This document shows, piece after piece, positions 8,328 to 28,602 of a DNA stretch of 64,000 nt. The stretch covers positions 6,592,259-6,656,258 of the forward strand of contig JASGKS010000001.1 in NCBI GenBank assembly GCA_047600485.1. Reading direction: 5' to 3'. The notes beneath the pieces were generated by a model. That model had not been told where the DNA came from. It was given only the letters and a program-made list of their open reading frames with translations, and did not search any database. The DNA is from Archangium sp. (lineage in GTDB: Bacteria; Myxococcota; Myxococcia; Myxococcales; Myxococcaceae). The position numbers were made by a program, and so were the translations under genes. Each line of letters opens with the position of its first letter. Positions within the stretch are counted from its first letter, which is position 1.

Positions 8328-8692
8328 GGCGCACCCGGCTTTCTCAGGCCCGTGAGCGCGACCTCGAGCGGAGTGCCGCTGCGCGACTTCCAGCTCACGA
8401 GGAAGGTCACCGCGTTGGGCGTCGGTGCATTGCCGTCGATGAACTGCAGCTCGCGCACTTCGACGCCTGGGAGTCCGTCTTCGAGCTTCGCGCGCGTCGC
8501 GGCGTCGAGCGGCTTGCCCGTCGCCGCGGCGCGAATGAGCTCACCGGCGAACACTTCGGCGCGTGCGCGCTGTAGCTCTTCGAGTGCGCGTCGCTCCGAG
8601 ATGTTCGAGATGGCGTCGAAGAGCAGACCGCTGAGGCTCAGCGTCGCGACGCACACCATCAGCTCGACCAATGTCATTCCACGACGGTTCAC
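8324..8692 (-). CDS. Minor pseudopilin (prepilin-type N-terminal domain)
   Basis: MNRRG|MTLVELMVCV motif. Overlapping stop/start on both sides. Confidence 0.75.
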   Translation of the reverse strand: MNRRGMTLVELMVCVATLSLSGLLFDAISNISERRALEELQRARAEVFAGELIRAAATGKPLDAATRAKLEDGLPGVEVRELQFIDGNAPTPNAVTFLVSWKSRSGTPLEVALTGLRKPGAP

Positions 8693-9807
8693 GACACACC
8701 TCGCTTCAACGTGCCGCGCGGCTCGAGCTTCTCGGCGCCGACGCGTTGCAGTGACTGATGCAGCGTCGCGAGCAACGTCTTCTCGAGCACGGCGCGCTCC
8801 ACTCCAAGTTCCAACATGCGCTGCGTGGCTTCGTCGGGCGTGCCCGCATGAAGGCCCGCGAGCACCAATCGGCCGGTGTGTGCGGCGCGAACGGCGAGCT
8901 GCGCTTCGGCCGCGGTGCGGATTTCACCGACCGCGAGCACGTCGAGGTCCTGTCGCAGCGCCGCGACGAGCGCGCTCTCGGCGGTGAGGCCACGCTCGGG
9001 GCAGAGCTCGACCTGCGCGACGGGAATACCGGCGACGCGCAGGCGCTGCTCGACCGGGTCTTCGAGGCTCAGGTGCGCTCCACCGCGCTGCTTCGCGACG
9101 TGCGCGAGCGCGGCGTAGAGCGTGGTCGTCTTGCCGGCTCCGGAAGCGCCCGCGACGAGAATCAGGCCGTGCTTCGCGTCGAGCGCTTCACGCATTCCTT
9201 CGAGGACGGCGGTGTCGAAGCCCAGTTGCTCGAGCGTGAGAAGTTTGCCGAAGAGCCGCAGCGCGCCGCGCTCGCCGAGCGCCGTCGGGAGGAACGCGGT
9301 GCGGACGTCGGCGGCCACTCCGTCGCGTTGAATGCGGCCTTCTTGCGCGAGGTCGCGACGGTACGGGAGACAGCCGCTGACCTGCTTGAGCGCGGCGAGG
9401 AGCCGCTCGCCCGCAGCGCGCGGCAAAGTGGTGAAGGGCACGAGTTCACCGAAGCGGCGCAGGGAGACGGTGACGGTGTCGCGTGCGTCCGATTCGACGT
9501 GGACGTCGGATGCGCCGCTGCGCGAGGCCATGTCGATGAGCGAACGCACCGCGCGCACGGGAGACCAGGCGCCTGCGAGGTAGCGCGCGAAGGCGGCGCC
9601 GTCATCGGTGAGCACTCCGGTCGCGGGCGGCGGTGAGAGCGCAGCACGCGTGAGTTCAGCTGCGTCGCGCTGCAGTGCGTGACGCGCGCCGTTCTGGGTC
9701 AGCATCGCGCTGCCGTCGAGCGCGCTCACGTCATCGAAAGGAACGAATTCCTTCGCGAGGAAACGCGTGCGGACGACCAGACCTTCGACGTTGGTCGATG
9801 AGTTCAT
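8689..9807 (-). CDS. GspE/PilB-family secretion ATPase (short form, lacking the long N-terminal domain)
   Basis: Walker A GASGAGKTTTLYAAL, Asp box, Walker B DVLAVGEIR and His box LAGLHAG. At 372 aa it has only the C-terminal ATPase core. Confidence 0.9.
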   Translation of the reverse strand: MNSSTNVEGLVVRTRFLAKEFVPFDDVSALDGSAMLTQNGARHALQRDAAELTRAALSPPPATGVLTDDGAAFARYLAGAWSPVRAVRSLIDMASRSGASDVHVESDARDTVTVSLRRFGELVPFTTLPRAAGERLLAALKQVSGCLPYRRDLAQEGRIQRDGVAADVRTAFLPTALGERGALRLFGKLLTLEQLGFDTAVLEGMREALDAKHGLILVAGASGAGKTTTLYAALAHVAKQRGGAHLSLEDPVEQRLRVAGIPVAQVELCPERGLTAESALVAALRQDLDVLAVGEIRTAAEAQLAVRAAHTGRLVLAGLHAGTPDEATQRMLELGVERAVLEKTLLATLHQSLQRVGAEKLEPRGTLKRGVS

Positions 9808-9827
9808 GAGTGCCTCGAGAGAAAGAT

Positions 9828-10023
9828 CCCCTCTCCCTGTGAAACGGGGAGAGGGTCAGGGTGAGGGGCGGAGTCGAGCATCGCGGGCAGAGGACGGATC
9901 AGCCCCTCACCCCAGCCCTCTCCACGCGTCGCAAGGAGAGGGAGAGCGGCAGTCGTGCACGGAGTCAGAGGACGCATCAGCCCCTCACCCCAGCCCTCTC
10001 CCCGCTTCGCAAGGAGAGGGAGG
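9828..10023. repeat. Cluster of three palindromic repeat copies (one forward, two reverse, with ~78-bp tandem duplication)
   Basis: cccctctccctgtgaaacggggagagggtcagggtgagggg, then 2x cccctcaccccagccctctcc...aaggagaggga. It sits inside the operon between the ATPase and the GspF-like genes. Confidence 0.8.
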
Positions 10024-10851
10024 TCATGGGTCGATGGCCTTCAAGTACGTCGAGTAGAACGCCGCCGCGCTCGCGAGCAGCGAGATGGCCCCGAGCAACA
10101 AGCCGAACGCGCTCAGGCGCGCCGCGTCGCGACGAACTTCGTGCGGCAAGGTCGTCGCCTGCAACGCCGAGAACGCTTCGAGTGTGGTGATGCCCGCTCC
10201 CGCAGTGACGGTGGTCGCCAACAATCGCGACGTCAGCGCTCCGAGCAGCGGACTCACTGCCTCGGGCTGAACTGCTCCCGCTTCGAGGCCCTGTGCGAGT
10301 GAGAGCGCAGCGCTCTTCCCACGTGCGCTGCACACTTCGGCGCTCGCGCGCGCCGCCGCAGGGAGCGCGACGCCAGCTCGCACCAGCGCCACCGTGGCCG
10401 ACGAGAAAATCCACGCGTCGAGCGACTGCCACGCGGTGAGCACTCCGAGTGACCAGCGCTCACGCACCGCGACGGCGAGCACGAGGAAGAGCACCACCGA
10501 GACCGCCAGCGGCACGAAGAAGAACGAGACGGACACGATGTCGCCGCTCGGCAGCGAGCGCAGCGCAGGCGCGGTGAACAACGCGATGACCGCCGACGCG
10601 AGCGTCACCAACACCAGCGTCGTCGCAGGCCACACCAGCGCGGTGTTGAGCCGCGTGCGGTGCTCACGCGCCGTGCGGTCGAAGGCCATCATCGACTCGA
10701 GCACTGCGCGCGCGTCGGACGGCTTCGATGCGATGACGGCGCGCGCGAGGGAGAGGTCGACCTCTGCGTGCTGCATCACGCTTTCGGCGGGTTCTAAACG
10801 GCCGAGCGCGGCGAGCGCGGCGTCCAACCGTTTTGCTCGAGCGAGACTCAT
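10024..10851 (-). CDS. GspF/PilC-like polytopic membrane protein (single T2SSF-like domain)
   Basis: Soluble N-terminal region then 3-4 TM helices. Assigned from operon context and topology similar to TadB/C-like single-domain platform proteins. Confidence 0.55.
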   Translation of the reverse strand: MSLARAKRLDAALAALGRLEPAESVMQHAEVDLSLARAVIASKPSDARAVLESMMAFDRTAREHRTRLNTALVWPATTLVLVTLASAVIALFTAPALRSLPSGDIVSVSFFFVPLAVSVVLFLVLAVAVRERWSLGVLTAWQSLDAWIFSSATVALVRAGVALPAAARASAEVCSARGKSAALSLAQGLEAGAVQPEAVSPLLGALTSRLLATTVTAGAGITTLEAFSALQATTLPHEVRRDAARLSAFGLLLGAISLLASAAAFYSTYLKAIDP

Positions 10852-10891
10852 GCGACCTCCGTAGTTTCACCCTCACCCCGACCGTTGGCGC

Positions 10892-11677
10892 TCACATGGC
10901 CCCCATCGGAAGCTGCGCGAGCGTGGCGTAGACCGCCGCCAACATCCCCAGCGCGTTGAGCGTCAGCACCGACAGACTCACCACTCGCGCCGTCACCACG
11001 AAGCGCTGCAGCTTCACCTCCGCCGCCGCGATGCACCGCGCGCGCACGACGTCGAGGTCGACCGCGTCGAGCGAACCGTCTCCGAGCCACTTCTGCTTCG
11101 AGAAGAAAGCCAGCCGCACGTCATCGGGCGCGCCGCTCTCGAGCAACGCCGCTCCGAGCGCGGCCTGCTTCGCGCGTTCCAACTCACGACCCCAGCCCGG
11201 CAACCTGCGCCAGCCGAGCGCGCCGGCGGCGAGCCACGCGAAGAGCGGAATGGTCAACACCAGGAACACCGTCGCCAGCGAATCGGCGAGCCCGAGGTAC
11301 GGAAGCTCGCGGTCCTTCGCCATCTCGAAGAACACCGGCAGCACCTTGTTTCGCAGCGCCGTGCCGACGAACAACTGCACCGCGGCGATGAAGAACACGT
11401 ACGCGCCGGTCTGCGCCACGTGCAGCCCCGACGCGAAGCCACCGGGAATTTCCTCGAGCCGCCGTAGCGTCGGCGCGAGCACTTTGGGCCAGCGCTCGGT
11501 GACGTCGACGACCTCATTGCTCACGCGCAGCGACGTGAGCACCTCGCGCACCTTCCCGCTCTGCGCCGCCGAGTGCAGAAACCCGATGCCCTTCACGTCG
11601 CTCAGCCCGTCCGCCAACGGCAACCCGCGCTCGAGGGAATCGGCAATCAACACCGTCGCAGCATCGTTGGGCGTCAC
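10892..11677 (-). CDS. GspF/PilC-like polytopic membrane protein (single T2SSF-like domain)
   Basis: Topology and context. The start overlaps the upstream stop (ATGA). Confidence 0.5.
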   Translation of the reverse strand: MTPNDAATVLIADSLERGLPLADGLSDVKGIGFLHSAAQSGKVREVLTSLRVSNEVVDVTERWPKVLAPTLRRLEEIPGGFASGLHVAQTGAYVFFIAAVQLFVGTALRNKVLPVFFEMAKDRELPYLGLADSLATVFLVLTIPLFAWLAAGALGWRRLPGWGRELERAKQAALGAALLESGAPDDVRLAFFSKQKWLGDGSLDAVDLDVVRARCIAAAEVKLQRFVVTARVVSLSVLTLNALGMLAAVYATLAQLPMGAM

Positions 11678-12510
11678 TTGACGTTCCCCGCGATGGAGAA
11701 GATCGGCAGGTACAGCGCAATCAGCACCACGCCGACGCTCAGCACTCCGGCCGCGGCGAGCGCGAGCGACGCGAACACGCGATACGTCTCCACGCGTCGA
11801 CGGCCTTCGAGCATCAACCGCGCCGCGAGGTTCGCGGTGACGACCGGCGTCTCGGCAGGCGCGTGGCGCTTCGACAACGCGACGAGCAAGCCGCGCTCCG
11901 CTTCTCCGAGCTTGAAGGTGCGCAGGCGTTCGAGCGGAGCAGCCTGCGTCGCCGCTCCGAAGAGACCGCGCGCCGCTTCGAGACTTCCGGCGCCGTACAC
12001 CGGCACCCGCAGGCGCGAGAAGAGCAGCACCGCGAAAATCGCGAGCGGGATTCCGATGATGCGCATCACCGACGCGAGCTCGTAGAGCAGCTGCGTCGGC
12101 ATCGGGAGCGTGCCGGCAAGCTGCGCGAGGGCCTGACCGTTGCCGGCGAACAAACCCACCAGCGCGAGCAACACGAACGGCCCGGCGAGCCCGACCTGCA
12201 ACACGCGACGACCGGCGATACGGGCTTGCTCCAGCTCGAGCGACGCCTCGAACGAGCGCGCGAGGTGCTCGGCGCGCTTCACGTCGTCGTCGCGCGACGC
12301 GAGCACGCGCACGAAGTCGTCGGTCACTTCGGCGGTGGTCGGTGCCTGCAACAGCAGCGCGGCCTCTTTGCAGCCCGCACGCGCCGCGCCTTCAGGGAGC
12401 GCATCGACGAGCCGATTCACGGCGTCGAGCGAGCTGATTCCCGAGCGGCGCAGCGCGATGAACTGTTGCAGGACGAGGGCGCGCGCTTCAGCGTCGGTGG
12501 GAGCGCTCAC
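11674..12510 (-). CDS. GspF/PilC-like platform protein
   Basis: The C-terminal LYLPIFSIAGNV matches the conserved GspF/PilC C-terminal motif (PIF..G), and the TM topology fits. Confidence 0.7.
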   Translation of the reverse strand: MSAPTDAEARALVLQQFIALRRSGISSLDAVNRLVDALPEGAARAGCKEAALLLQAPTTAEVTDDFVRVLASRDDDVKRAEHLARSFEASLELEQARIAGRRVLQVGLAGPFVLLALVGLFAGNGQALAQLAGTLPMPTQLLYELASVMRIIGIPLAIFAVLLFSRLRVPVYGAGSLEAARGLFGAATQAAPLERLRTFKLGEAERGLLVALSKRHAPAETPVVTANLAARLMLEGRRRVETYRVFASLALAAAGVLSVGVVLIALYLPIFSIAGNVK

Positions 12511-12938
12511 TCCAACGCCTCACGAATGGTGAGCGCTCCGGTGCGGCCGTCCCAGCGGTAGTCAGACGTGACGCCGTCGCCGTCGAGGTCACCTTCCGCG
12601 ATGGCGGTGAAGCTGCCGTCCTTCACTTCGACCGAGTAGCGGAAGCGCACCTCGCCCTGCGGAGCGACACCGAGCGATTTCCAACAGTCGGACACCGCGA
12701 ACGGCGTCGCCTTCTTCGGCACCTCGCCCGTCGCGGGGCACGCGAGGAAGGCGCCCGTGTCGCGCCAGTGTCGGAGTTCCTGATGCGCGATGGCCGCGAG
12801 AATGGCGTGCGCTTCGTCCGCACGCGCGCGGCGAATCAGCGCTTCACCGGTGGGCACCGTGATGGAGACGACGATGCCCATCACTGCGAGCACGAACGCC
12901 AGCTCGGCGATCGTGAAACCGCGGGCGCTACGACGCAT
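12507..12938 (-). CDS. Major (pseudo)pilin, type IV pilin-like
   Basis: MRRSARG|FTIAELAFVLAVMGIVV: prepilin peptidase site, Glu+5 and a hydrophobic alpha1 helix. 143 aa, first gene of the operon. Confidence 0.8.
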   Translation of the reverse strand: MRRSARGFTIAELAFVLAVMGIVVSITVPTGEALIRRARADEAHAILAAIAHQELRHWRDTGAFLACPATGEVPKKATPFAVSDCWKSLGVAPQGEVRFRYSVEVKDGSFTAIAEGDLDGDGVTSDYRWDGRTGALTIREALE

Positions 12939-13020: not shown

Positions 13021-14790
13021 TCAGCGACGGCGTCGCATCAGTCCGAGCAACATCAGCAACGGGAACGCGAGCGTCACTTCAGACGTGCAGCCGCAGCCGC
13101 TGGTGCCCTTGAGCCCACCACCGCCACCGCCACCGCCGGTGATTCCACCGCCGCCGGTGATGCCTGAGCCGCCGCCAGCTGCCGAGCCGCCACCCGTTCC
13201 GCTTCCGCCACCCGAGCCCGCGTCAGAGCCGCTACCGCCGCCGGTCGCCGAGCCACCGCCGGTCGCGCCACCGCCACCACCAGTCGCGCCGCCGCCACCG
13301 CCCATGCCCGCGTCCTGGCGAGGAGGACGTCCGCCGCCACCGCCGGTCGCGCCGCCACCGCCGCCAGTCGTGCCGCCGCCACCGCCAGTCGCACCGCCGC
13401 CACCGCCGGTCGCACCGCCGCCACCGCCGGTCGCTCCACCGCCACCGCCCGTCGCACCGCCGCCACCGCCCGTCGCACCGCCGCCACCGCCGGTCGCTCC
13501 GCCGCCGCCGCCCATGGGGCCGACGCCCGCGTCCCAGCTCACGTTGATGTTCAGCGAACCGACCGTCACGCACTCACCGCCGACCACCAGCGAATCGGTC
13601 GAGAAGTTCCACTCGCGGAAGGTCACGTTGCTCAGCGAGCCGACGTACTGACCGGCGAGCTCATCTTGCGTGACGGAGGTGACGGTCACGCTGCCCGACT
13701 GCGCGAGGAAGCGCTTCTGGCAGGTCATCGTGTTGCAGCGCCGCCGCATCATTGGGCACACCTCGCAGCTCGCGAAGTCGGTGGTGGCGTCGAACATCAC
13801 CGTGGTCGGCAGCATCAGCCCGAAGCCGAGGTAGGTCTCGACGGTGAGGAAATCCATCCCACCGTCGGCGGTCGCCGGAGGCTGCGTGTAGAAGTCGACG
13901 AACCCGAACTCGTCGATCGAGTCGTAACCCGCCGACGCGTTGGTGGTCGGCCAGCTCGCGAGCATCAAGCACGACGCGTCCATGCCCGAGCCCGCGTCGA
14001 CACCCGAGCCCGCATCGACACCCGAGTCAGGACGGCCCGCGTCGACGCCCGAGTCGGGGCGGCCCGCGTCCGTCACTCCGGCGTCGGAGCCCGTGCCGCC
14101 GTCGCTGCCGCTGCAGTTGTTGCGCGTGCTGCCGGCGTTGCGCGGGTTCGCTGAAATCACCGTGAAGTCGTTCGAGTTGTTGTCGGTCTCGGTGCAGCCA
14201 TTGCCGTTGCGCACTTCGACCGCCGCTGCGTTCAGCGCCGCCGCCGCGACCGCTTCGCTGCAGTTCGCGGTGCCGTAGCCGATGAAGTCGACGATGTTCG
14301 CTCCGGTGGGGCACGCGCCGCTCAGACCGGTGGAGTTGTTCACCAGCGCGACCTTCCCGTTGATGGCCGACATCGCGATGTTGTCGACCACGTCAGGCGT
14401 GACGGGCAACGCCGCGCCCATGCCGGTCGTCGTCTGCTCAGCGACGAGGAGATACTGGCCGGGCTGAATGGTGACGTTGGGCAGCGTGGTCGGGTTCCAC
14501 GAGGTGCCGGTCGCTCCGGCGTACTGCACCGACCAGCCGTTGACGTTGACCGCCACGCTGCCGCGGTTGAAGAGCTCGATGTAGTCGGTGTTCCAGATGG
14601 CCGTGCCGTTGCCGCCGCCGCCGTAGACCTGGCTGATGACGATGCCGCTCGAGAGCGCGTCGCGGCGGTTGATGACGTCGGCGTTGCCGCGCTTGCGACC
14701 CCACGGCTGCTCTTCGCCACCGCACGCGAAGTAGAGAATCGAGGCGACGGCTGCGACAGCGACGAGGCGAAGCGAACGGGAGTTCTTCAT
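13021..14790 (-). CDS. Secreted lipoprotein with lamin-tail domain (LTD), Gly-rich repeats and MYXO-CTERM sorting signal
   Basis: Signal/lipobox (ILYFAC), LTD signature (VISQVYGGGGNGTAIWNTDYIELFN...NGWSVQY), DAGRPDSGV repeats and (GGGGGAT)n repeats. It ends GCGCTSEVTLAFPLLMLLGLMRRRR, i.e. MYXO-CTERM-like. Confidence 0.8.
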   Translation of the reverse strand: MKNSRSLRLVAVAAVASILYFACGGEEQPWGRKRGNADVINRRDALSSGIVISQVYGGGGNGTAIWNTDYIELFNRGSVAVNVNGWSVQYAGATGTSWNPTTLPNVTIQPGQYLLVAEQTTTGMGAALPVTPDVVDNIAMSAINGKVALVNNSTGLSGACPTGANIVDFIGYGTANCSEAVAAAALNAAAVEVRNGNGCTETDNNSNDFTVISANPRNAGSTRNNCSGSDGGTGSDAGVTDAGRPDSGVDAGRPDSGVDAGSGVDAGSGMDASCLMLASWPTTNASAGYDSIDEFGFVDFYTQPPATADGGMDFLTVETYLGFGLMLPTTVMFDATTDFASCEVCPMMRRRCNTMTCQKRFLAQSGSVTVTSVTQDELAGQYVGSLSNVTFREWNFSTDSLVVGGECVTVGSLNINVSWDAGVGPMGGGGGATGGGGGATGGGGGATGGGGGATGGGGGATGGGGGATGGGGGTTGGGGGATGGGGGRPPRQDAGMGGGGGATGGGGGATGGGSATGGGSGSDAGSGGGSGTGGGSAAGGGSGITGGGGITGGGGGGGGLKGTSGCGCTSEVTLAFPLLMLLGLMRRRR

Positions 14791-14867
14791 GCGGGCGGCG
14801 TGCTTGTCACACGTGCGCATGGCTGATCAATCCCACGCGCGAAAAGCCCCGCGTTCGACGAAAACTC

Positions 14868-15989
14868 TCAGGCGCCGAGAACCTGCTTGGCCCGCGCGTA
14901 GTACGCGTCGCGGCTCGCCTTGCCGTTGTACCCACCGTTCACGCGCAACGTGATGGCGTCGAAGTTCCGCGCGTCGGCGTACGAGTTCAGGTTGCGGCTG
15001 TTCCAGAACCACTGGGCGATGCGGAAGCCGACTTCGGGAGTGGCAGCCAGCTCGGGGTGATTCACCAGGTCCACTCCGAGCGCGCGCGACGCGGCGGTGT
15101 AGTTGCTGCGGCCAGTGAGCTGAATCGGCCCGCGGCCCTTGTAGCGAACGCCATCGCCCGGCTGCGTGTTGCCCAAGTCGCGACGGCCTTCGTACGCGGC
15201 GCCCGACGCAATCTCTTCGAAGTACCGCAGCTGACCCGACTCGTGCGCGAGCTGCGCGAGGAACGCGGCCTGACGCAGCGGCGTGTTGATGCCGCCCTCG
15301 GCCATCGCGGCGTTCAAGTACGGCAGGTAGCGGTTGGCGTCAGCGGCCGAGAGGTTCGGCATGATGGCGCGCAGCTGCGCGGCGCTGATGCCACCGGTGG
15401 TCGGCCCGGGAACCGGACCCGTCGGCGTCACCGGAGTCGGCGCCGGCGTGCTCGAGCCACCCGGCAGGCGGAGCACCTGACCGGCGTAGATCATGTTCGG
15501 GTTGCTGATGCCGTTGAGCGACGCGAGCGCCGAGACCGTCGTGCCGTAGCGCGACGCGATGCCGGAGAGCGTGTCGCCCGAGCGCACGCGGTACGTCCCG
15601 CCACCACTCGTCGCCGGCGGAGCCGACGGCGCCGGCCCACCGCTGCCCGCGACGTTCAGGCGCTGGCCGACGTAGATGAGGTTCGGGTTGCGGATGCCGT
15701 TGCGCGCGGCGAGCGCGGAGACCGTGGTGCCGAAGCGCGAGGCAATCGACGAGAGCGTGTCGCCGCTGCGCACCGTGTACGACTGCGAGCCGCTGCTGCT
15801 GCTGCCGTTGTTCTGCGGCGCGGGCGCGGGCGTGCTCGAGAAACCGTCTGGCACCTGCAGCGATTGCCCGGCGTAGATGACGTTCGGGTTGCTGATGTGG
15901 TTCGTCTGCGCGAGCGCGGCGACCGACGTGTGGTACCGCGCGGCGATGCTGCTGAGGGTGTCACCGGAACGAATCGTGTACGTGCCCAT
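14868..15989 (-). CDS. Peptidoglycan hydrolase: 3x LysM + glycoside hydrolase family 19 (lysozyme/chitinase-like) domain
   Basis: Three YTVRSGDTLSSIA...IYAGQ LysM repeats, then GH19 signatures AAFLAQLAHESGQLRYFEE and IAQWFWN. Confidence 0.85.
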   Translation of the reverse strand: MGTYTIRSGDTLSSIAARYHTSVAALAQTNHISNPNVIYAGQSLQVPDGFSSTPAPAPQNNGSSSSGSQSYTVRSGDTLSSIASRFGTTVSALAARNGIRNPNLIYVGQRLNVAGSGGPAPSAPPATSGGGTYRVRSGDTLSGIASRYGTTVSALASLNGISNPNMIYAGQVLRLPGGSSTPAPTPVTPTGPVPGPTTGGISAAQLRAIMPNLSAADANRYLPYLNAAMAEGGINTPLRQAAFLAQLAHESGQLRYFEEIASGAAYEGRRDLGNTQPGDGVRYKGRGPIQLTGRSNYTAASRALGVDLVNHPELAATPEVGFRIAQWFWNSRNLNSYADARNFDAITLRVNGGYNGKASRDAYYARAKQVLGA

Positions 15990-16090
15990 GACCGGAGTTG
16001 TCCGCCCGGCCGCACGCCACGACTTTCGCGCGAACTGTCAAAGCAGCAGACAGATCAGCCGCATTTCCACCGCCCATTTCCGAGCGAATT

Positions 16091-17707
16091 TCAGGGCGGT
16101 GCGCCCGACAGAATCCACGCGCGCACGGTGTCGAGCTCCGCGGTGGTGAGGCCGCCGCCGGCCTTCGGCATCTGCGAGCCGAAGCACATGCCGCTGCCGG
16201 TGAGCTTGTTGAGCAGGTAGCTGTTGCTCAAGTCGTTGGGCACCACGCGCTTGCGGTTGGTGCACTGGCCCGAGGTGACGTTCACCAGGTTGGCGTAGCC
16301 CGTCGTCGCCGACGAGAGGTTGAGGCCTTCCGCCGGTCGAGCGCCACCATGACAACCGGAACCCGAGCACGAGTTCCGCACCCAGATGGGGTTCACGTCG
16401 GTCGCGTACGAACGCGGCGTGACGGCGCAGGTGCCCGAGGCGCTGCAGCTCGAGCCGCCGGGGCACGCGCCGCAGCTGCCACCACAACCGTCGCTGCCGC
16501 ACTGCTTGCCGCTGCAGCTCGGACTGCACCCGCACGTTCCTGCCGCGGAGCAACTTTGACCCGACATGCAGGTGCCGCACGAACCTCCGCAGCCGTCGTC
16601 GCCGCACACCTTCCCGACGCACGACGGCGTGCAGCCACACGCGCCCGCCGTGCTGCAGGTCAGCCCGCCCGCGCACGTTCCACACGAGCCTCCGCAACCA
16701 TCGGGCCCGCACGCCTTGCCCGCGCAGTCGGGCACGCACGCGCACGCGCCGGCGCCATTGCAGACCAGCGGCGCAGTGCAGGTTCCGCAGGAACCACCGC
16801 AGCCATCGTCACCACAGGTGCGGCCGGTGCAGCTGGGCGTGCAGGTCGCTCCGCAGCGCCCCGTCTGCGAGTTGCACGTCAGCATTCCCGCGCAGCTGCC
16901 GCACGAGCCGCCGCACCCATCGGGGCCGCACTGCCGCCCGGTGCAGCTGGGCGTGCACACGCACGCGCCGCTCGCATTGCACGTCTGTGGCGCTGCGCAC
17001 GCGCCGCAACTTCCGCCGCACCCGTCGGGCCCGCACGTCTTCCCCGAGCACGCGGGCAAGCACACGCACTGCCCGCTCGCACCACACACCCCGCTGGAAC
17101 AGACGCCGCAGCTTCCCCCGCACCCGTCGGCACCGCAGCTGCGCCCTGAACACTGCGCGGTGCACACGCACTGCCCGGTCGCGTTGCAGCTCGTGGTGCT
17201 GGCGCAGGTGCCGCAGGTGCCTCCGCAGCCGTCGCTGCCGCACGCACGACCCAGACAATCGGGCGTGCACGAGGTCGACGGCTGGCATTGGCCCGCGGCG
17301 GTGCAGTTGTCGCCGGGAGCGCACGCGCCGCAGCTGCCTCCACAGCCGTCGTCACCGCACGCACGGCCACTGCACGCCGCCACGCAGCTCGAGCTCGCGA
17401 GCGTCGTGAGGTGCGCGTCGAGCAGCGACTTCTCGCAGGCCTGCAGGCCGCCCGGAGGCATGGTGCCGTCGTCGAACACGCGCACGCGAATGCGCGACAT
17501 CCAGCGGCGCACGTCGGCGTCGGTGTCAAAGTCGACGCCGTCGGTGGCGCCCGCACGCGCCGCTCCGGTGACTTTGACCGAGTGACAGGTCAAACAGTTG
17601 CGGGTGATGACCTCGCGGCCATCGGCTGAGGGGCACGCGGTGCTCACGACCTGACCGGGACACCCCGAGAGGAGTGCCGCGGCCAGAAGGGCGGTGAGCG
17701 CGCGCAC
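16091..17707 (-). CDS. Lipoprotein with N- and C-terminal PSCyt1-like (CxxCH) modules flanking nine tandem 8-Cys repeats
   Basis: LLSGC lipobox and NCLTCH. Nine repeats of C-x-G-[KR]-x-CG-x-DGCGG[ST]CG-x-C...C..G.C.C.P[SD]. C-terminal SGCHGG...MPKAGGGLTTAELDTVRAWILSGAP. The ORF starts at 17752; an internal start near 17707 is preferred to avoid overlap. Confidence 0.7.
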   Translation of the reverse strand: MRALTALLAAALLSGCPGQVVSTACPSADGREVITRNCLTCHSVKVTGAARAGATDGVDFDTDADVRRWMSRIRVRVFDDGTMPPGGLQACEKSLLDAHLTTLASSSCVAACSGRACGDDGCGGSCGACAPGDNCTAAGQCQPSTSCTPDCLGRACGSDGCGGTCGTCASTTSCNATGQCVCTAQCSGRSCGADGCGGSCGVCSSGVCGASGQCVCLPACSGKTCGPDGCGGSCGACAAPQTCNASGACVCTPSCTGRQCGPDGCGGSCGSCAGMLTCNSQTGRCGATCTPSCTGRTCGDDGCGGSCGTCTAPLVCNGAGACACVPDCAGKACGPDGCGGSCGTCAGGLTCSTAGACGCTPSCVGKVCGDDGCGGSCGTCMSGQSCSAAGTCGCSPSCSGKQCGSDGCGGSCGACPGGSSCSASGTCAVTPRSYATDVNPIWVRNSCSGSGCHGGARPAEGLNLSSATTGYANLVNVTSGQCTNRKRVVPNDLSNSYLLNKLTGSGMCFGSQMPKAGGGLTTAELDTVRAWILSGAPP

Positions 17708-17708
17708 G

Positions 17709-19388
17709 TCAGTTGATGGGCACGGTGCAGGTGCACTGACCCGCGGCGCCACACGGCGTCAGCAGCGGCGTGAGGCACGACAGGCCCGAGCAGCACGACG
17801 TTCCGCCCGCCGAGCAGGTCTGGCCCTGGTTCACGCACATCGCCGCGGAGCACACGCCGAATTCGGCGCCCGCGGGAATGGCGCACGTGGTGCCGCTGCA
17901 GCAGTCAGACGACGCGGTGCAGATGTCGCCCAGGCCCTGGCAGACGGTGGGCGTGCCGCAGGTGCCAACGCCCGCGTCGTTGAGCGAACAAATCTGCGAG
18001 CAGCAGTCGTTCGAGAAGCTGCACATGCCTCCGTTGGCGCGGCAGAGCGGGCCCGCGTCGGGGAGCATGCCGCCGTCGGGCAACACCATGCCGCCGTCGG
18101 GCAGCGTGATGATGCCGCCGTCGGTGGTCTCCTCGAGCGGGCGGCACACGTTGCCGAGGCACAGCCCGCCGCAGCAGTCGCCGTCCATCGCGCACGTTCC
18201 ACCGAGCGGAGTGCAGCTCGCCGTGGTGCAGCGCAGGACACCGCCGTCGCCCGGCAAGCAGAGCGCGCCGTTGCAGCACTGGTCGCGGAACTGGCAGACG
18301 TCGCCCGCGGGAATGCAGCAGCCGGGCTGACCCGTGAAGCCGGTGGGGCACGAGCCGCTGATGCCGCCGAAGCAACGCGGAATGCCGGACATGTCGAGCT
18401 TGCAGACGTCCTTCATGCCGTTGCAGCAGTTCTGGCTGGCGTTGATCATCACCTCGCCGCCGTCGGGCAACTTCGCCGTGCCGCAGATGTTGCCCACGCC
18501 GTTGCACGACTGGCCGTTGTCGCAGCGACCGTCGGTGCACTGCACCGAGCCGTTGGGGTTCACGCCGCCGCCGCAGCACGCGTCATCGCCGGAGCACGAC
18601 GTACCCGTGAGCCGACAGCCGCCCGCCGGCAAGCACACCGTCGCGCCGGAGCCCGGGTCGAAGCAGGTGCGCGAGCAGCAGTTGCTTCCACCGCTGCAGG
18701 GATTGCCTTCCTGCGTGCAGCCGCCACCGCCGCCGCCGGTGATGGTGCGGCAGAAGCCGACGCCGCCGTCGTTCACGCTGCACGCACGCCCACAGCACTC
18801 GCCGTCGCTCGAGCAGCGGTCACCGTTGGGCTGGCAGTAGTACGCCTTGGCGCACGCGCCTGACTTGCAGAGCGTCGAGCAGCACTCGCCGTTGCCGTTG
18901 CACGAATCGCCGAGCACCTTGCACGCCCCGCCGCCGGGGATGATGGCGCACGTGTTGGCGTTGCAGACGCCGGTGCAGCACTCCGAGCCCGACTGGCACG
19001 CCTGGCCGAGCGCGGTGCACGCGGTGCCTCCGCAGGTGCCGTTCACACAGTTGGCGTTGCAGCAGTCGGTCGAGGTCGAGCAGCTCTGGCCCGGGTCGCG
19101 ACAGAACGTCGACGAGGTACAGACCGTGCCGTTGCAGGTTCCCGAGCAGCAGGGCTGCGAGGTGCTGCACGGGTCTCCCGCGGCCACGCACATGCCCGAG
19201 TCGGGCAGCATGCCTCCGCCGCCGGTCGTGCCTCCGCCCGTCGTGCCGCCGCCACCAGTGGTGCCTGCGCCCGTCCCACCTCCGGTGACGCCGCCGCCAT
19301 CGGTCCCACCGTCGGCATTCGTGTTGGGGTTGCAGTTACAGCCAGCGAGCACCACCACACAGGAGACGGCGAAGAGCGAACGGATCAT
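17709..19388 (-). CDS. Lipoprotein composed of ~13 tandem knottin-like (C-x6-C-x5-CC-x3-C-x4-C) modules
   Basis: Signal plus lipobox (VVLAGC|N), a Gly-rich linker, then repeated CxxxGxxCxxxxxCCSGxCxxxxC units. The start was moved to MIRSLF. Confidence 0.7.
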   Translation of the reverse strand: MIRSLFAVSCVVVLAGCNCNPNTNADGGTDGGGVTGGGTGAGTTGGGGTTGGGTTGGGGMLPDSGMCVAAGDPCSTSQPCCSGTCNGTVCTSSTFCRDPGQSCSTSTDCCNANCVNGTCGGTACTALGQACQSGSECCTGVCNANTCAIIPGGGACKVLGDSCNGNGECCSTLCKSGACAKAYYCQPNGDRCSSDGECCGRACSVNDGGVGFCRTITGGGGGGCTQEGNPCSGGSNCCSRTCFDPGSGATVCLPAGGCRLTGTSCSGDDACCGGGVNPNGSVQCTDGRCDNGQSCNGVGNICGTAKLPDGGEVMINASQNCCNGMKDVCKLDMSGIPRCFGGISGSCPTGFTGQPGCCIPAGDVCQFRDQCCNGALCLPGDGGVLRCTTASCTPLGGTCAMDGDCCGGLCLGNVCRPLEETTDGGIITLPDGGMVLPDGGMLPDAGPLCRANGGMCSFSNDCCSQICSLNDAGVGTCGTPTVCQGLGDICTASSDCCSGTTCAIPAGAEFGVCSAAMCVNQGQTCSAGGTSCCSGLSCLTPLLTPCGAAGQCTCTVPIN

Positions 19389-19468
19389 GGTTTCTCCTTG
19401 GGAGTGAGGGTGTGCCTCGCAGCGCGGAGGATCAGGCAAACGTCCGTCGATCATGAGAGAAGTGCCCC

Positions 19469-24135: not shown

Positions 24136-25440
24136 TCAGAAATCGCGTTTGCACTGCGCGTCGCGCTCGGGGTCGATGACCGCCTCGGGCAGCTCCGGCA
24201 CCGACACGTCAGGGTGCTCGAAGTCGAACATGTCGAGCAGCGGCCAGGCGTTCGCGTCGCGTTTGGTGAGCGCGGGCAAATCGAACCGCGTCTCGACGAG
24301 CCGAGTCACCGAGGTGTGGTCGACGGGCACGTGCGACACGTACTTCCGCTTCGCGAACGGCGAGATGACGATGAGCGGCGTGCGGAAACCGAGGTGGTCG
24401 AAGCGCCGGCTCGGGTCTCCGTCGGGCAGCATGTCGTCGGGCTCGCACGCCTTCGGAGGCGGCACCGAGTCGTAGAACCCGCCGTGCTCGTCGTAGAGAA
24501 AGATGAGTGCCGTGCGCGGCCACTGCGGCGAGTGCATGACCGCCTCGACGATGCTCCGCGTGAAGAGCTGCCCGCGCTGCATGTTGCCCGCGGGGTGCTC
24601 GTCGTCCTGGTCGCCTTCGACGCCGCCGGTGAAGTTCGCCTCGACGATGGACACTGGCGGCAACGTGCCCGCTTCGGCGTCGACGAAGAACTGCGGCAGC
24701 ATCTTGAAGTTGTCGTCATTGCTCTGCAGCAGCCCGACGAACACCGCGGGTGACGCCACGTCGCTCACGTAGGAACGCCACTCGACCTTCGCGCTGTTGA
24801 GTCTCGTGAACAGACTGTTGGTCGGCTTGTTGTTCACCTGCAGCGGCGGCAACCCGTTGCGGATGGCGCCGAACGACGTCGCGGCCCAGTAGTAGATGCG
24901 GTTGGGTTGCGTCGGGCCCATCACCGACGCGAAGTGCATGTCGGAGATCGCGAAGGTGCGCGCGAGCCCGTAATAGAACGGCAGGTCGGTCTCGTCGAAG
25001 TAGCCCAGCGCGCGCTCACCGTCGGGGTCGTTGCTGATGGCGAAGCCGTCGTGCTTGCCGTTGCCGAACTGCAGGTGCGAGCCGAACCACGAGTGATTCA
25101 CGTCGGAGATGCAGTAGCGCGTCTCGTGAAAGCGCATCACCGTGCCACCGTCGGCGAGCGGGTTGGTGGCGGTGGCCGGAGCGACGTGCACGCCGCCGTG
25201 ATTCAGCTTCGAGAAGTAGTGATCGAACGAACGGTTTTCCTGCATCACGAGGATGAAGTGGTCGATGGGAATCTGCGCGCCGACCTTCGTCCCCGGAGCG
25301 AGCGTCTCACTCGCCATCGCGCCCGGGCCGTACGTGCACTCCGCCATCTTCGCGCGCGCGGCTTCGTCGTCTGGCCCCGGCGGAGTCGACTTCGTGCAAG
25401 CCGCGAAGCTGATCAGCACAACGAGGGCCGAGGTGCGCAT
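24136..25440 (-). CDS. Phospholipase C / phosphoesterase-family lipoprotein
   Basis: Signal plus lipobox (LISFAAC|T) and the phosphoesterase signature VMQENRSFDHYFS. The 285-codon upstream extension of the ORF was rejected. The start codon position is good to +-1 nt. Confidence 0.85.
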   Translation of the reverse strand: MRTSALVVLISFAACTKSTPPGPDDEAARAKMAECTYGPGAMASETLAPGTKVGAQIPIDHFILVMQENRSFDHYFSKLNHGGVHVAPATATNPLADGGTVMRFHETRYCISDVNHSWFGSHLQFGNGKHDGFAISNDPDGERALGYFDETDLPFYYGLARTFAISDMHFASVMGPTQPNRIYYWAATSFGAIRNGLPPLQVNNKPTNSLFTRLNSAKVEWRSYVSDVASPAVFVGLLQSNDDNFKMLPQFFVDAEAGTLPPVSIVEANFTGGVEGDQDDEHPAGNMQRGQLFTRSIVEAVMHSPQWPRTALIFLYDEHGGFYDSVPPPKACEPDDMLPDGDPSRRFDHLGFRTPLIVISPFAKRKYVSHVPVDHTSVTRLVETRFDLPALTKRDANAWPLLDMFDFEHPDVSVPELPEAVIDPERDAQCKRDF

Positions 25441-25512
25441 GGGACGGCTGCGTAGCAGAGCCCGCGTGTCGCTGAAGTGACAGTCTGGTGTTCGTGGTAG
25501 GCGCCCGAGTGG

Positions 25513-28500
25513 ATGAGCGACTCCCCGCGAACACCGACGGTTGCCGAGTCGCAAGTCAGCGATTCGACGAAGGACGAGTCGAACTCGTCCTCGGAGCCGA
25601 CGTCGCTGCCGACGCGCGCGCAGAGCCGTTACGTGTTCCTCACCGAGCACGCCCGCGGTGGCCTCGGCCGCGTGTGGCGCGTCTACGACCGGGAGCTGGG
25701 GCGTGAGCTCGCGCTCAAAGAATCGCTCACTGATGACTCCGCGGCGCGCAAGCGCTTCCTCCACGAGGCGCTGACCACCGCGAAGTTGGAGCACCCGGCC
25801 ATCGTGCCCGTGCATGACGCGGGCGTGTCTGATCAGACCGGCTCGCTCTTCTACACGATGAAGTTGGTGAGCGGCTCGACGCTGGCCGAGGTCATCGCGT
25901 CCACTCCGTCGCTCGAGGCGCGATTGGAACTGCTGCCGCGCGTGCTCGCCGTCGCCGAAGCGGTTGGCTACGCGCACAGCAAGGGCGTGCTGCACCGCGA
26001 CCTGAAGCCCGAGAACGTGCTCGTCGGAAAATTCGGCGAGACGGTGGTCATCGACTGGGGTCTCGCGAAGGCCGTTCCCACGACCGAGAGCGGGCCGGTG
26101 ACCGACGCGTCGCTCACGCGGGCGGGCGCGGTGATGGGCACTCCGGGCTACATGCCGCCCGAGCAGGCCGCGGGTGACGACGTCGACGCGCGCGCTGACG
26201 TCTACGCGCTCGGTGCGTGTCTCGCGTCGGTGGTGAGCGGCCGCAAGCCGACGTCGATGGCCACTCCGCGCTCGGGAGAGCCGGGCGTGCAGCACTTCGC
26301 GCTCGAAGAGACGCGCGGCGTGCCCCGAGACCTGCTCGCCATCATCCGCAAGGCGATGTCAGCGGCGCGCAGCGAGCGGTACCGCGACGCGAAGGCGCTG
26401 GCTGATGACCTGAACCGCTACCTCGCGCGGCAGAGCGTCGAGGCGCACGAGTACTCGCTCGCCGAGCGCATCGCGCGCTGGGTGCAGCGCCATCGAGCGC
26501 TCGCGCTGGCGACGGTGACGATTCTCGTGCTCTCCGCGCTCGGAGCGACGCTCGCCACCTTCCGCGAGGCCGGCCTGCGACGCGAAGCGGAGACCAGCAC
26601 GCGCTCGCTGCTCGAAGTGCAGGGCCGCACCGAGTTGAGCGCCGGGCGTCCACGCCGCGCGGCGGTGTACTTCGCCGAGGCGTTGAAGCGCGCGCCCGGC
26701 GACGCCGCGCTGCGCATGTTGCTCGAGCAGTCGGTGCGCTCGCTCGCCGCGAAGAAGTTCGAGCTGGTGGGCATGCAGCGGGACGTGGTCACGGTCGACT
26801 GGAGCCCTGACGGCAAATGGCTCGCGACCGGCGGTGACGACGAAGCAACGCGGCTGTGGAACGCCGAAACCGGAGCGCTCGCCAAAGCCGTCACCCAGCA
26901 CGCGCGTGGGCTCGACGACGTCACGTTCTCGCGTGACTCGAAGCTGCTCGTGTCGTGCGGTGGCGACCACAAGGTGCGCGTGTCGTCGGTGGAGACGCTC
27001 GGCGAGGTGGCGGCGTTCGACGACCCGAATCCCTATCGCTGCATCTTCACGCCCGATGGTTCGCGCGTGGTGGTGGGAGATCAGAGCGGCGAGGTGCGCG
27101 TCTACGACTGGAAGACCGGGACGAAGTTGCACACGCTCGTGCAGCACACCAATCGCGCGCAGTACCTGGCGTTCGCTCCGAGTGGAGAGCTGGTGGTGAT
27201 GGGCTGGGACCGCAGCGCGAGCGTGTGGGACGGCACGACGTTCACGCAGCTGCGCGTGTTGCGCGACTTCGAGTCGGAAGGTGCGGCCATCGCGTTCAGC
27301 CACGACGGCCGCTGGGCCGCGCTCGCGGAGAGCGACTTCTCGATTCACTTCTACCGGCTGCCGTCGTGGGAACACGCGCACCGCATTCGCACGCCCGATG
27401 ATTCGCGTTTTCCGCGCATCGCATTTTCGCTCGACGACCAGCAGCTCTTCTCCGGGAGCGCGGAAGGTGTGGTGCGCGCGTGGCACGTGATGAGCGGTGC
27501 GTTGCTGGCGACCGTCGACGTGCAGCCCGAGGGAAAGTTGTTCGCCAGCGCGATGAGCCCCGACTCGATGCGGCTGCTGACGGCCGGGCTCGATGGTTCG
27601 GCGGCGGTGTGGTCGCTCGACGGCGTGCTCGACTACCGCGTCGTTCCGTTTCGCGACGAGACGCGACCCACCGTGTTGCCCGGAGAAGTCTCGTCGACCG
27701 GCCGCTTCGTGCTGCCTGACTCCACGGGGCAGCTGAACGTGCTGACGAGCGAGGGCAAGGTCGAAGCGCGGTTCGGCGTCGGTGACTGGCCGGGCTCGGT
27801 GGCGGTGAGCGAAGTCGCGGGCACGGCGTTGGTGTCGAACGAGCGGAAGGGCTTTCGCGATTTGAAGGTGCGGCGGTTGAGCGACGGGAGCACGGTCGGC
27901 GAGCCGGTGCCGCATCAGGGCATGATCATCAACACCGCGGTCACGCGCGACGGGCTGCGCTACGCGACGGCTTGCTACGACGGCAAGGTGCGCATCATCG
28001 ACGCGCGCGACGCGAAGCTGTTGCTCACTGCTGAGGTCGCGAAGGACCGGTTGTCGGCGCTGACCTTCTCTCCTGATGGTTCGCAGCTCGCGGTGGCCGA
28101 AGGGAACGGCGTGGTGCACTTCATCGACGCGACGAGTGGAGCCGAGACGCGCAAGTTCACCGCGAGCGCGACGTGGATCGACGACGTCGAGTTCTCATTC
28201 GACGGCAAACGACTGGTGACCGCCGGCCGCCAGGACCATCGCGTGCGCGTGTGGGACGTGGCCACGCTGGCGATGCAGTTCGATTTCTCGGAGCACTCCA
28301 ACAACGTGGTGCGCGCGCGATTCTCGAGCGACGGCAAGCGCATCGCGTCAGTCGGAGTGGACCACGTGGCGTTGCTGCACGACGCGACGAGCGGGCAGCT
28401 GCTGCGCTCGTGGCGCGGGCCTTCTCAGACCGCCGAATTTCTCGCCGGAGACACCGAGCTGTTGACCACCGGAAACGACGGCTACGTGGTCATCTGGAAG

Positions 28501-28602
28501 CTCGCTGCTGATTCGCGCAGCAACGCTGAGCTGTTCGAGGCAGTCGCGAAGCAAGCGCCGTGGAAGCTCGAGAACGGCCGGCTCACGCGTCGAAGTGAAT
28601 GA
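25513..28602 (+). CDS. Ser/Thr protein kinase with TM segment and C-terminal WD40 beta-propeller domain(s)
   Basis: HRDLKPENVL, DWG and PPE motifs, then more than 10 WD-like repeats (SPDGKWLATGGDDEATRLWN...). Confidence 0.9.
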   Translation: MSDSPRTPTVAESQVSDSTKDESNSSSEPTSLPTRAQSRYVFLTEHARGGLGRVWRVYDRELGRELALKESLTDDSAARKRFLHEALTTAKLEHPAIVPVHDAGVSDQTGSLFYTMKLVSGSTLAEVIASTPSLEARLELLPRVLAVAEAVGYAHSKGVLHRDLKPENVLVGKFGETVVIDWGLAKAVPTTESGPVTDASLTRAGAVMGTPGYMPPEQAAGDDVDARADVYALGACLASVVSGRKPTSMATPRSGEPGVQHFALEETRGVPRDLLAIIRKAMSAARSERYRDAKALADDLNRYLARQSVEAHEYSLAERIARWVQRHRALALATVTILVLSALGATLATFREAGLRREAETSTRSLLEVQGRTELSAGRPRRAAVYFAEALKRAPGDAALRMLLEQSVRSLAAKKFELVGMQRDVVTVDWSPDGKWLATGGDDEATRLWNAETGALAKAVTQHARGLDDVTFSRDSKLLVSCGGDHKVRVSSVETLGEVAAFDDPNPYRCIFTPDGSRVVVGDQSGEVRVYDWKTGTKLHTLVQHTNRAQYLAFAPSGELVVMGWDRSASVWDGTTFTQLRVLRDFESEGAAIAFSHDGRWAALAESDFSIHFYRLPSWEHAHRIRTPDDSRFPRIAFSLDDQQLFSGSAEGVVRAWHVMSGALLATVDVQPEGKLFASAMSPDSMRLLTAGLDGSAAVWSLDGVLDYRVVPFRDETRPTVLPGEVSSTGRFVLPDSTGQLNVLTSEGKVEARFGVGDWPGSVAVSEVAGTALVSNERKGFRDLKVRRLSDGSTVGEPVPHQGMIINTAVTRDGLRYATACYDGKVRIIDARDAKLLLTAEVAKDRLSALTFSPDGSQLAVAEGNGVVHFIDATSGAETRKFTASATWIDDVEFSFDGKRLVTAGRQDHRVRVWDVATLAMQFDFSEHSNNVVRARFSSDGKRIASVGVDHVALLHDATSGQLLRSWRGPSQTAEFLAGDTELLTTGNDGYVVIWKLAADSRSNAELFEAVAKQAPWKLENGRLTRRSE

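Follow-up and report, generated by a model that had tools for sequence, protein, structure and literature searches.

The closest functional analogue of the protein described here is PgcA of Geobacter sulfurreducens, known for 'microbial heme-tethered redox strings' or 'hemes on a string' (PMC10570954; PMC5732950). Our protein is encoded in a 64,000-nucleotide (nt) stretch of Archangium sp. DNA (contig JASGKS010000001.1, positions 6,592,259 to 6,656,258; hereafter the window), where a minus-strand gene specifies a predicted lipoprotein of 538 amino acids (aa) with a cytochrome-like domain at either end and nine eight-cysteine modules between them. Compared by architecture, not by sequence, the two proteins are alike in being lipobox lipoproteins that are, or in our case should be, exported, in consisting of single-haem cytochrome c beads and repetitive spacers, and in having a proposed reach of about 20 nm. 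They differ in that PgcA has three mutually homologous CXXCH domains, whereas the window protein has two unrelated domains, one of them with CX4CH. The linkers of PgcA are floppy, unstructured Pro-Thr segments that let the domains meet; the spacer of the window protein is made of nine modules predicted to be structured, and release from the cell is not indicated for it. On the reading we favour, with slightly better than even confidence, Sec exports the window protein, a lipid anchors it, and it is a c-type cytochrome with two haems, its dumb-bell shape owed to a disulfide-stapled stalk. It would be a variation on two kinds of structure already known, c-type cytochromes on tethers and arrays of Cys knots outside the cell.

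The separate parts of the protein also have described counterparts. The N-terminal domain is like the C-terminal domain of CcoP and like cytochrome c5 in its CXXCH motif, distal Met-Pro and length of about 90 aa (profile matches at E of 5e-6 to 5e-4), and like membrane-tethered cytochrome c_y in adjoining a membrane anchor; it differs from them in an anchor predicted to be lipid rather than a transmembrane helix and in an extra conserved cysteine pair, C25/C91. The C-terminal domain shares with PSCyt1 (PF07635, 'Planctomycete cytochrome C') the elements C..CH, GL-L, V-PG-P--S-L, MP and L----I--I--WI--GA, but it has CX4CH instead of CXXCH, scores below the family cutoff, occurs without PSCyt2/PSD1 and comes from a host in the Myxococcota rather than the Planctomycetes-Verrucomicrobia-Chlamydiae (PVC) group. 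The repeat array resembles the tandem epidermal growth factor (EGF) and cbEGF arrays of fibrillin, the LDL-receptor family and WIF-1, in which all-disulfide β-hairpin modules of 35-40 aa follow one another head to tail, with very short linkers, to form extracellular rods. The window modules differ in having eight rather than six cysteines, in giving no Pfam EGF match and only Foldseek matches at E of about 0.4 or worse, and in the distinct signature CG-x-DGCGG-x-CG-x-C, which is of bacterial origin.

An earlier sequence-only reading of this locus had reported a lipoprotein in which two PSCyt-like haem modules flank nine cysteine-rich repeats, and had suggested a disulfide-rich stalk presenting a haem domain or else a metal- or surface-binding array. 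As an observation this was confirmed (a lipoprotein with CLTCH...MP, nine eight-Cys units and CSGSGCH...MP); as an interpretation it was partly supported. The gene occupies most of a minus-strand open reading frame (ORF) at 16091-17752, and starting it at GTG 17707, 1 nt past the TGA of the upstream gene, gives the 538-aa product (Table 1). The product opens with MRALTALLAAALLSGC, a signal peptide of Sec/lipoprotein type with a single Arg and not a twin-arginine motif, ending in the lipobox LSGC, which fits the pattern [LVI][ASTVI][GAS]C. Pfam LPAM_1 matches only at E 0.92, and the lipoprotein call rests on the pattern; the lipobox Cys is kept in at least 90% of orthologs. The call of a lipoprotein made at the outset holds. 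An ortholog from a Myxococcaceae metagenome-assembled genome (MAG), at locus L006 and 69% identical, opens alike (MRSLLLLTIGGLGLGC). In Myxococcus xanthus, Lys at +2 directs lipoproteins to the inner membrane and Ala at +7 to the matrix (PMC3222651). The mature N-terminus of the window protein, CPGQVVS, has neither, and by these sorting rules the outer membrane would be the default destination, which is a weak inference. An exact-sequence look-up gave no match and carries little weight, its query having begun with the V of the GTG codon.

Searching 5.8 billion proteins with the window protein returned more than 4,364 matches, nearly all via the repeat, the best being only 56% identical. About 25 matches cover the full length, at 47-57% identity, and those sources that have names are Myxococcota MAGs; a scan for loci with the single window protein gave only 7 related loci. 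Aligned with the window protein (alignment A1, 26 sequences), the full-length orthologs have in common the lipobox Cys and the repeat scaffold. C38, C41-H42, M83-P84 and C91 are invariant in the N-terminal domain, and C447, C452-H453, C482, C508, M513-P514 and W531 in the C-terminal domain. Nine units are present in about 23 of the 26 sequences and also in the L006 ortholog, and unit-specific lengths are kept across orthologs (38-39 aa for unit 1 and 38-42 aa for unit 5). A comparison of copy number among strains had been suggested as a check; the number is fixed at nine rather than variable, and its retention across 47-57% identity argues against strain-to-strain copy variation.

The N-terminal domain contains the canonical CXXCH motif noticed at the outset, CLTCH, invariant in A1. 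With about 90 aa, this motif and a distal Met, it corresponds to class I cytochrome c; Met83 is the probable sixth ligand, and C25/C91 form an extra Cys pair. Its scores fall below the Pfam cutoffs, with 19.8 bits against Cytochrome_CBB3 (cutoff 27) and 20.4 bits against Cytochrom_C (cutoff 21.3). Cytochrome_CBB3 is matched by all 26 orthologous sequences, however, at a best E of 1.3e-6. When the PDB was searched with a profile of the domain, CcoP matched at 5e-6, and matches at 5e-4 to 2e-3 were to cytochromes c5, ScyA and cA. Only one of the 26 sequences gives a PSCyt1 match from this domain (E 0.067). The domain is thus best taken as an ordinary class I cytochrome c with probable His/Met ligands and an additional Cys pair, and the suggestion that both ends of the protein are PSCyt-like holds for the C-terminal domain only. 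We also considered the two end domains as duplicates of one another and rejected this: hhalign gives a probability of 24%, with the alignment confined to the haem motif.

At the C-terminus, both the CSGSGCH motif and MPKAGGGLTTAELDTVRAWILSGAPP were found as described before, but the motif is CX4CH, and the module is not one of CxxCH type. It too has an extra Cys pair, C482/C508. Against PSCyt1 the window domain scores 13.7 bits (E 0.1), which fails the gathering cutoff of 22. This similarity, weak as it is in the hidden Markov model search that had been proposed as a check, nevertheless recurs at E<=1 in 16 of the 26 orthologs, with a best E of 1.4e-5; in the wider family, only one of 74 members reaches E<=1e-3. 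No PSCyt2 or PSD1 (DUF1549/DUF1553) partner domain was matched by Pfam in the window protein. Sequence matches in the PDB are marginal (E about 0.2) and are to cytochromes c6 and c552, with C..CH and MP aligned. The predicted fold, compared with solved structures, is nearest to FoxE (5mab) and PccH (4rlr). Neither of these is lipid-anchored on a repeat stalk, we take the haem motif of both to be CXXCH, and the resemblance does not imply a shared function.

A protein from a Joint Genome Institute (JGI) metagenome, P0109 (640 aa), has three PSCyt1-type domains, one with CX4CH and two with CXXCH, and seven eight-Cys repeats between the second and the third. CX4CH and CXXCH can therefore coexist in one protein, and repeat and cytochrome are combined in more than one arrangement. 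P0109 passes PSCyt1 at 64.3 bits over three stretches, best on the CX4CH copy, and its third domain aligns with the profile of the window domain's family (A5) at an hhalign probability of 99.1% (E 5e-19). The homology of the window domain to PSCyt1 is transitive, via P0109. The link is real but remote, and by the Pfam criterion the window domain is a non-member.

A profile search returned 460 relatives of the C-terminal domain, none with a precomputed Pfam domain for the region. A large share of them belong to other phyla, such as Calditrichota, and consist of the domain by itself as a lipoprotein of 140-150 aa. Among 74 members, with a mean column identity of 31%, the two Cys, the His, S69, K74 and Met-Pro are invariant. 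Of 106 family members, 90 have CX4CH as their haem motif, 5 have CX3CH, 5 have CX2CH and 6 have CX5-9CH; CX4CH is an accepted, uncommon motif for haem c attachment (PMC11492766). The CX4CH cytochrome domain is one of two large families found here that are undescribed in the Pfam and NCBIfam copies searched.

The other is the eight-cysteine module. A regular expression for its core finds exactly nine units in the window protein, and their pattern is C-x3-C-x4-CG-x-DG-C-GG-x-CG-x-C-x5-C-x5-C. These had been thought to be nearly identical repeats of 35 aa; the count stands, but the units are 34-39 aa long and share 46-71% identity in protein (mean 59%) and 57-73% in DNA. Junctions between them are one residue long, save after unit 1 (five residues) and unit 5 (three residues). 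The Cys/Gly scaffold is nearly invariant across the units, unlike the other positions; Cys makes up 22.5% of the residues in the repeat region, and Gly 23.8%. An array of ~105 bp had also been reported in the DNA, at 16420-17350. The units span 16427-17386, and a 105-nt period does exist, visible only at 60-75% identity, but Tandem Repeats Finder, run on 15500-18500, called no array in the gene. The moderate identity of the units, the missing call and the weakness of the period mark the array as old and diverged, kept together by its Cys/Gly scaffold, and not as a recent amplification. Comparison of unit i with unit i across orthologs gives an identity of 0.47 on the diagonal and 0.45 off it.

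The repeat had not been recognised as a described family, and our searches agree. Pfam-A and NCBIfam give no family for the isolated repeats even at E<=10, and none for the whole protein, the nearest being SorB at E 0.11; described Cys-rich repeat families include TIGR02232/DUF4215 (of Myxococcus), Stig1 and Dicty_CTDC, whose presence in the searched libraries is unconfirmed. A profile search of PDB sequences with the repeat yields nothing beyond thrombospondin-1 (E 1.6). AlphaFold2 (AF2), applied to units 6-8, produced one confident model, with a predicted local distance difference test (pLDDT) score of 92.8, that contains short strands only. Foldseek found no significant match to this model in the PDB, its nearest entries being tandem EGF arrays at E 0.38-5, and literature searches with the motifs DGCGG and CGGSCG returned irrelevant matches only.

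How widespread is the module? We searched a three-unit profile against 1.84 billion representatives of clusters formed at 50% identity and matched 5,325 of them, 2,952 at 1e-10 or better. At about 5,300 clusters, this is a large family, with proteins of up to 4,581 aa that contain units by the dozen. Most of the 120 best homologs of the window protein have '-' as their precomputed Pfam entry, and 61 repeat-rich relatives have no family in common (Dicty_CTDC matches one of the 61). Domains joined to the repeat include PPC, M23 peptidase, TIG, LTD, SLH, PAD, NAGPA, FGE and CAP, and a hydrophobic N-terminus is present in 118 of 124 repeat relatives with an intact start. We take the module to be a spacer that works outside the cell and is stapled by disulfides; its role would resemble that of EGF modules, although it lies outside their family. 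The earlier idea of a disulfide-rich stalk fits a family whose members mostly bear signal peptides and carry varied extracellular partner domains.

To see the CX4CH domain in other contexts, we read six independent neighbourhoods of stand-alone members (L013-L024, taken pairwise). A gene for DUF5777, a 'membrane bound beta barrel', adjoins the cytochrome in three of the six, in the arrangements cytochrome, YceI, DUF5777 (L013/L014), DUF5777, cytochrome (L017/L018) and molybdopterin oxidoreductase, DUF5777, cytochrome (L021/L022). An EB_dh-domain protein with a secretion tail lies upstream in a fourth (L019/L020), and no recognisable redox or barrel partner adjoins in the remaining two (L015/L016 and L023/L024). 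Two of the barrels, L017:4733-5986 and L021:3703-4947, themselves begin with a copy of the CX4CH domain (NCALSGCH and SCAQAGCH). This fused domain aligns with the family profile at an hhalign probability of 99.8% and with the window domain by tblastn at 36% identity (E 2e-14). The fusion of cytochrome to DUF5777 recurs in at least 353 relatives, some 400-420 aa long; they come from Calditrichota, Rhodothermales and other lineages (non-myxobacterial MAGs), and CX4CH is present in 116 of 120 barrel fusions among the matches listed. The fusion genes usually adjoin a stand-alone lipoprotein copy and once have a molybdopterin oxidoreductase neighbour. DUF5777 is not mentioned in the searchable literature. 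These redox and outer-membrane neighbours of CX4CH relatives support a working haem domain. The window encodes no DUF5777 barrel, however, and the CX4CH neighbourhoods thus give no partner for the window protein.

A described protein of similar layout is Cyc2, a fused monohaem cytochrome-porin (PMC9900912). The distant CX4CH relatives likewise fuse the domain N-terminally to a predicted outer-membrane barrel, but that barrel is DUF5777 and the motif CX4CH; the likeness is one of architecture alone, and the window protein itself has no barrel. It is conceivable, though in our view rather unlikely, that CX4CH domains make up an unrecognised, phylum-spanning class of single-haem cytochromes working at the outer membrane, with the DUF5777 fusions as a second Cyc2-like type of cytochrome-porin that is often paired with a lipoprotein copy and sometimes with a molybdopterin oxidoreductase. 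In Myxococcota the domain would then be mounted with a class I cytochrome on a nine-knot stalk of fixed length, a ruler or bridge over which electrons pass to the cell surface or across a gap the size of the periplasm. Such a class would imply a haem lyase that tolerates CX2-9CH.

For the window protein, the favoured reading can be followed from anchor to tip. The Sec-type signal peptide and lipobox would direct export and the lipidation of Cys16. Next to the anchor, a class I cytochrome c of about 90 aa would bind haem at CLTCH, with His42 and Met83 as axial ligands. Once out of the cytoplasm, each of the nine modules most likely folds into a β-hairpin knot stapled by four disulfides, and together they may form a semi-rigid stalk of roughly 20 nm (an estimate from 2-3 nm per EGF-sized module), close to the width of the periplasm. 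Stiffness is suggested by the one-residue junctions and the four putative disulfides per unit, while units 1 and 5 are each followed by a slightly longer junction, conserved in position, that could serve as a hinge. At the tip, a 110-aa cytochrome c fold like those of PSCyt1, FoxE and PccH would hold its haem at C447, C452 and H453, with Met513 as the sixth ligand. The role would be electron transfer outside the cytoplasm, with the stalk setting the distance from the membrane-proximal haem to the distal haem or to a partner.

If this is correct, the recently proposed class of tethered cytochromes comes in a second design, in which a fixed count of stiff disulfide modules replaces a floppy, low-complexity linker, and distance itself appears to be under selection. 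The CX4CH family, whose domain can stand by itself, sit on a stalk or be part of a DUF5777 outer-membrane barrel protein, would then be a natural test set for the tolerance of haem lyase, from CX2CH to CX9CH. As myxobacterial extracytoplasmic redox proteins are little known, a lipoprotein cytochrome that may span the periplasm would also offer a concrete starting point that is easy to express.

Several points weigh against this picture of a two-haem dumb-bell. A stiff stalk puts the haems far beyond tunnelling distance, so that intramolecular transfer would need the hinges, or each haem would serve a separate partner. Disulfide pairing and stalk length are estimates that do not derive from coordinates, and the other four of the five AF2 repeat models scored just 44-58. 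Full-length orthologs are found in unrelated neighbourhoods, and context yields no partner; a near relative, Archangium sp. MAG-75, has moreover deleted the gene. As for the C-terminal domain, among relatives its cysteines are 2-9 residues apart, a variation not usually seen in haem sites, for which a special lyase might be required. The searchable literature contains no experimental haem for this family or for PSCyt1 (there are few PSCyt1 papers, the contents of which were not examined).

These last two points, along with the sub-cutoff PSCyt1 score and the marginal PDB matches, would also fit a protein in which only the N-terminal domain is a real cytochrome and the C-terminal domain is a haem-free, cytochrome-like fold, serving as a ligand-binding or docking head on the stalk. 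We regard this as quite unlikely. Across 74 diverse members, neither the Cys, the Cys-His nor the Met-Pro varies, and with His and Met fixed, a purely structural role is not to be expected; CX4CH, a known haem c motif (PMC11492766), is also retained in 116 of the 120 listed barrel fusions of other phyla, and the nearest structures, FoxE and PccH, contain haem. Improbable to much the same degree is that the repeats are the working part, an array that adheres to or binds a matrix such as polysaccharide, mineral or the surface of prey, and that the haem domains are redox accessories, for instance in Fe(III) reduction for iron uptake. Thousands of proteins combine the module with domains found at surfaces, among them lectin-like, peptidase and S-layer domains, and the genes around the window gene also code for proteins that are secreted or lie at the surface (the Cys-rich lipoprotein, the LysM-GH19 protein and the LTD protein, whose tail is MYXO-CTERM-like). 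The linkers of PgcA, too, bind metal oxides (PMC10570954). Yet positions other than Cys and Gly are poorly conserved, and no surface particular to a unit is conserved (0.47 versus 0.45), which suits a spacer better; the fixed nine copies, for their part, suggest a length requirement.

That the modules bind metal, in the manner of metallothioneins or iron-sulfur proteins, for storage or as a conductive path between the haems, we consider very improbable. Such a path has some appeal, as otherwise no obvious electron route joins the two haems, and the Cys and Gly content is high and CxxC-type spacings do occur. Cofactor-loaded iron-sulfur proteins, however, are normally exported by the twin-arginine translocation (Tat) pathway, and the signal here is of the Sec/lipoprotein type. 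The even, invariant Cys count per unit fits disulfides, AF2 predicts compact hairpin knots whose nearest, if weak, fold neighbours are EGF arrays, and the module also occurs in proteins that have no use for a wire, namely peptidases, deiminases and S-layer proteins. We give next to no credence to the notion that there is no real gene here, but a chance ORF in GC-rich DNA or an antisense gene. Long antisense ORFs do lie opposite both Cys/Gly-rich genes, at 16566-17585 (+) and 17770-19407 (+), with a G+C content at third codon positions (GC3) of 0.85-0.93, and a simple filter on GC3/GC2 favoured the antisense frame at 16566-17585. These ORFs are a composition artefact of TGC and GGC codons: in Cys/Gly-rich genes the filter chooses antisense frames over true genes, and having mislabelled the strand, it was not used for these genes. 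GC3 in the sense frame is 0.86. The 25 full-length orthologs, at 47-57% identity, keep the signal peptide, haem ligands and Cys scaffold, a 69%-identical ortholog exists in the Myxococcaceae MAG, and the end domains fold confidently in prediction or match cytochrome families. With more than 4,000 protein homologs and these orthologs preserving the Cys, His and Met positions, we regard the sense strand as secure, and the homology data effectively refute a spurious gene.

Table 1. Coordinates of the cytochrome-stalk gene, its parts and its nearest neighbours in the window
Feature	Position (nt)	Strand	Remarks
Whole gene	16091..17707	-	538-aa lipoprotein (predicted); stop codon 16091-16093; GTG start 17707
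Signal peptide with lipobox (MRALTALLAAALLSGC)	17660..17707	-	Cys16 = lipidated residue (predicted)
Putative class I cytochrome c domain	17387..17659	-	CLTCH at 17582-17596 (aa 38-42); Met83-Pro84 at 17456-17461
Nine tandem modules, 8 Cys each	16427..17386 (aa 108-427)	-	Regular expression, exactly nine matches
Unit borders (5' ends)	17386, 17269, 17164, 17062, 16957, 16843, 16738, 16633, 16528	-	
C-terminal predicted cytochrome c-fold domain (CX4CH/PSCyt1-like)	16094..16426	-	CSGSGCH 16349-16369 (aa 447-453); Met513-Pro514 at 16166-16171
Upstream Cys-rich lipoprotein, about 560 aa (MIRSLFAVSCVVVLAGC...)	17709..19388	-	Many C-x6-CC-x3-C-x5-C knots
Three LysM domains + GH19-like (chitinase/lysozyme-like)	14868-15989	-	Directly downstream of the cytochrome-stalk gene
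Lamin-tail-domain (LTD) protein	13021-14820	-	Long GGGGAT-type Gly repeats; tail GCGCTSEVTLAFPLLMLLGLMRRRR resembles MYXO-CTERM

The gene just upstream encodes another Cys-rich lipoprotein and is apparently co-transcribed with the cytochrome-stalk gene. Its product has no Pfam or NCBIfam family, with a weak, sub-threshold match to conotoxin I2. In Archangium sp. MAG-75 (L011), a locus that shows synteny with the window (75-85% identity in nucleotides), this gene is 83% identical in DNA and has been kept although the cytochrome-stalk gene is deleted. Only the last 87 nt of the latter remain there (L011:5559-5652 versus window 16091-16177, 85% identity), encoding ...SQMPKGGGLTATELDTVRAWILSGAAP* directly past the stop of the Cys-rich gene. 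Together, the synteny and the remnant indicate that the gene was ancestral at this site but is dispensable in MAG-75. The LysM-GH19 gene is absent from L011 too, where the sigma/anti-sigma block has the opposite orientation to that in the window. No copy of the upstream gene was seen next to the orthologs at L003, L005 and L006, while a 567-aa gene in L001 might be a relative. We rejected the upstream gene as a dedicated partner, there being no conserved operon partner among the ortholog loci.

No oxidase or bc1 genes were found near the window gene. At a marine ortholog locus, a gene for a two-domain multicopper oxidase (L003:5686-7740) stands divergently beside the cytochrome-stalk gene, an arrangement unseen at the other ortholog loci. 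NCBIfam did not match the MYXO-CTERM-like tail of the LTD protein. Beyond that gene, at 8689-12938 (-), lies a group of genes similar to those of type II secretion or type IV pili. It comprises an ATPase of the T2SSE family (8689-9807), three ORFs without Pfam families and a pseudopilin-like protein with a prepilin-type N-methylation motif (12507-12938, -). A gene for an extracytoplasmic function (ECF) sigma factor is divergently transcribed in the window. Farther away, at 25513-28602 (+), is an ORF for a Ser/Thr protein kinase of 1,029 aa in which the kinase is joined to two WD40 propellers; this ORF overlaps a minus-strand ORF call of the phosphoesterase family (24136-26295), making one start or stop assignment doubtful.

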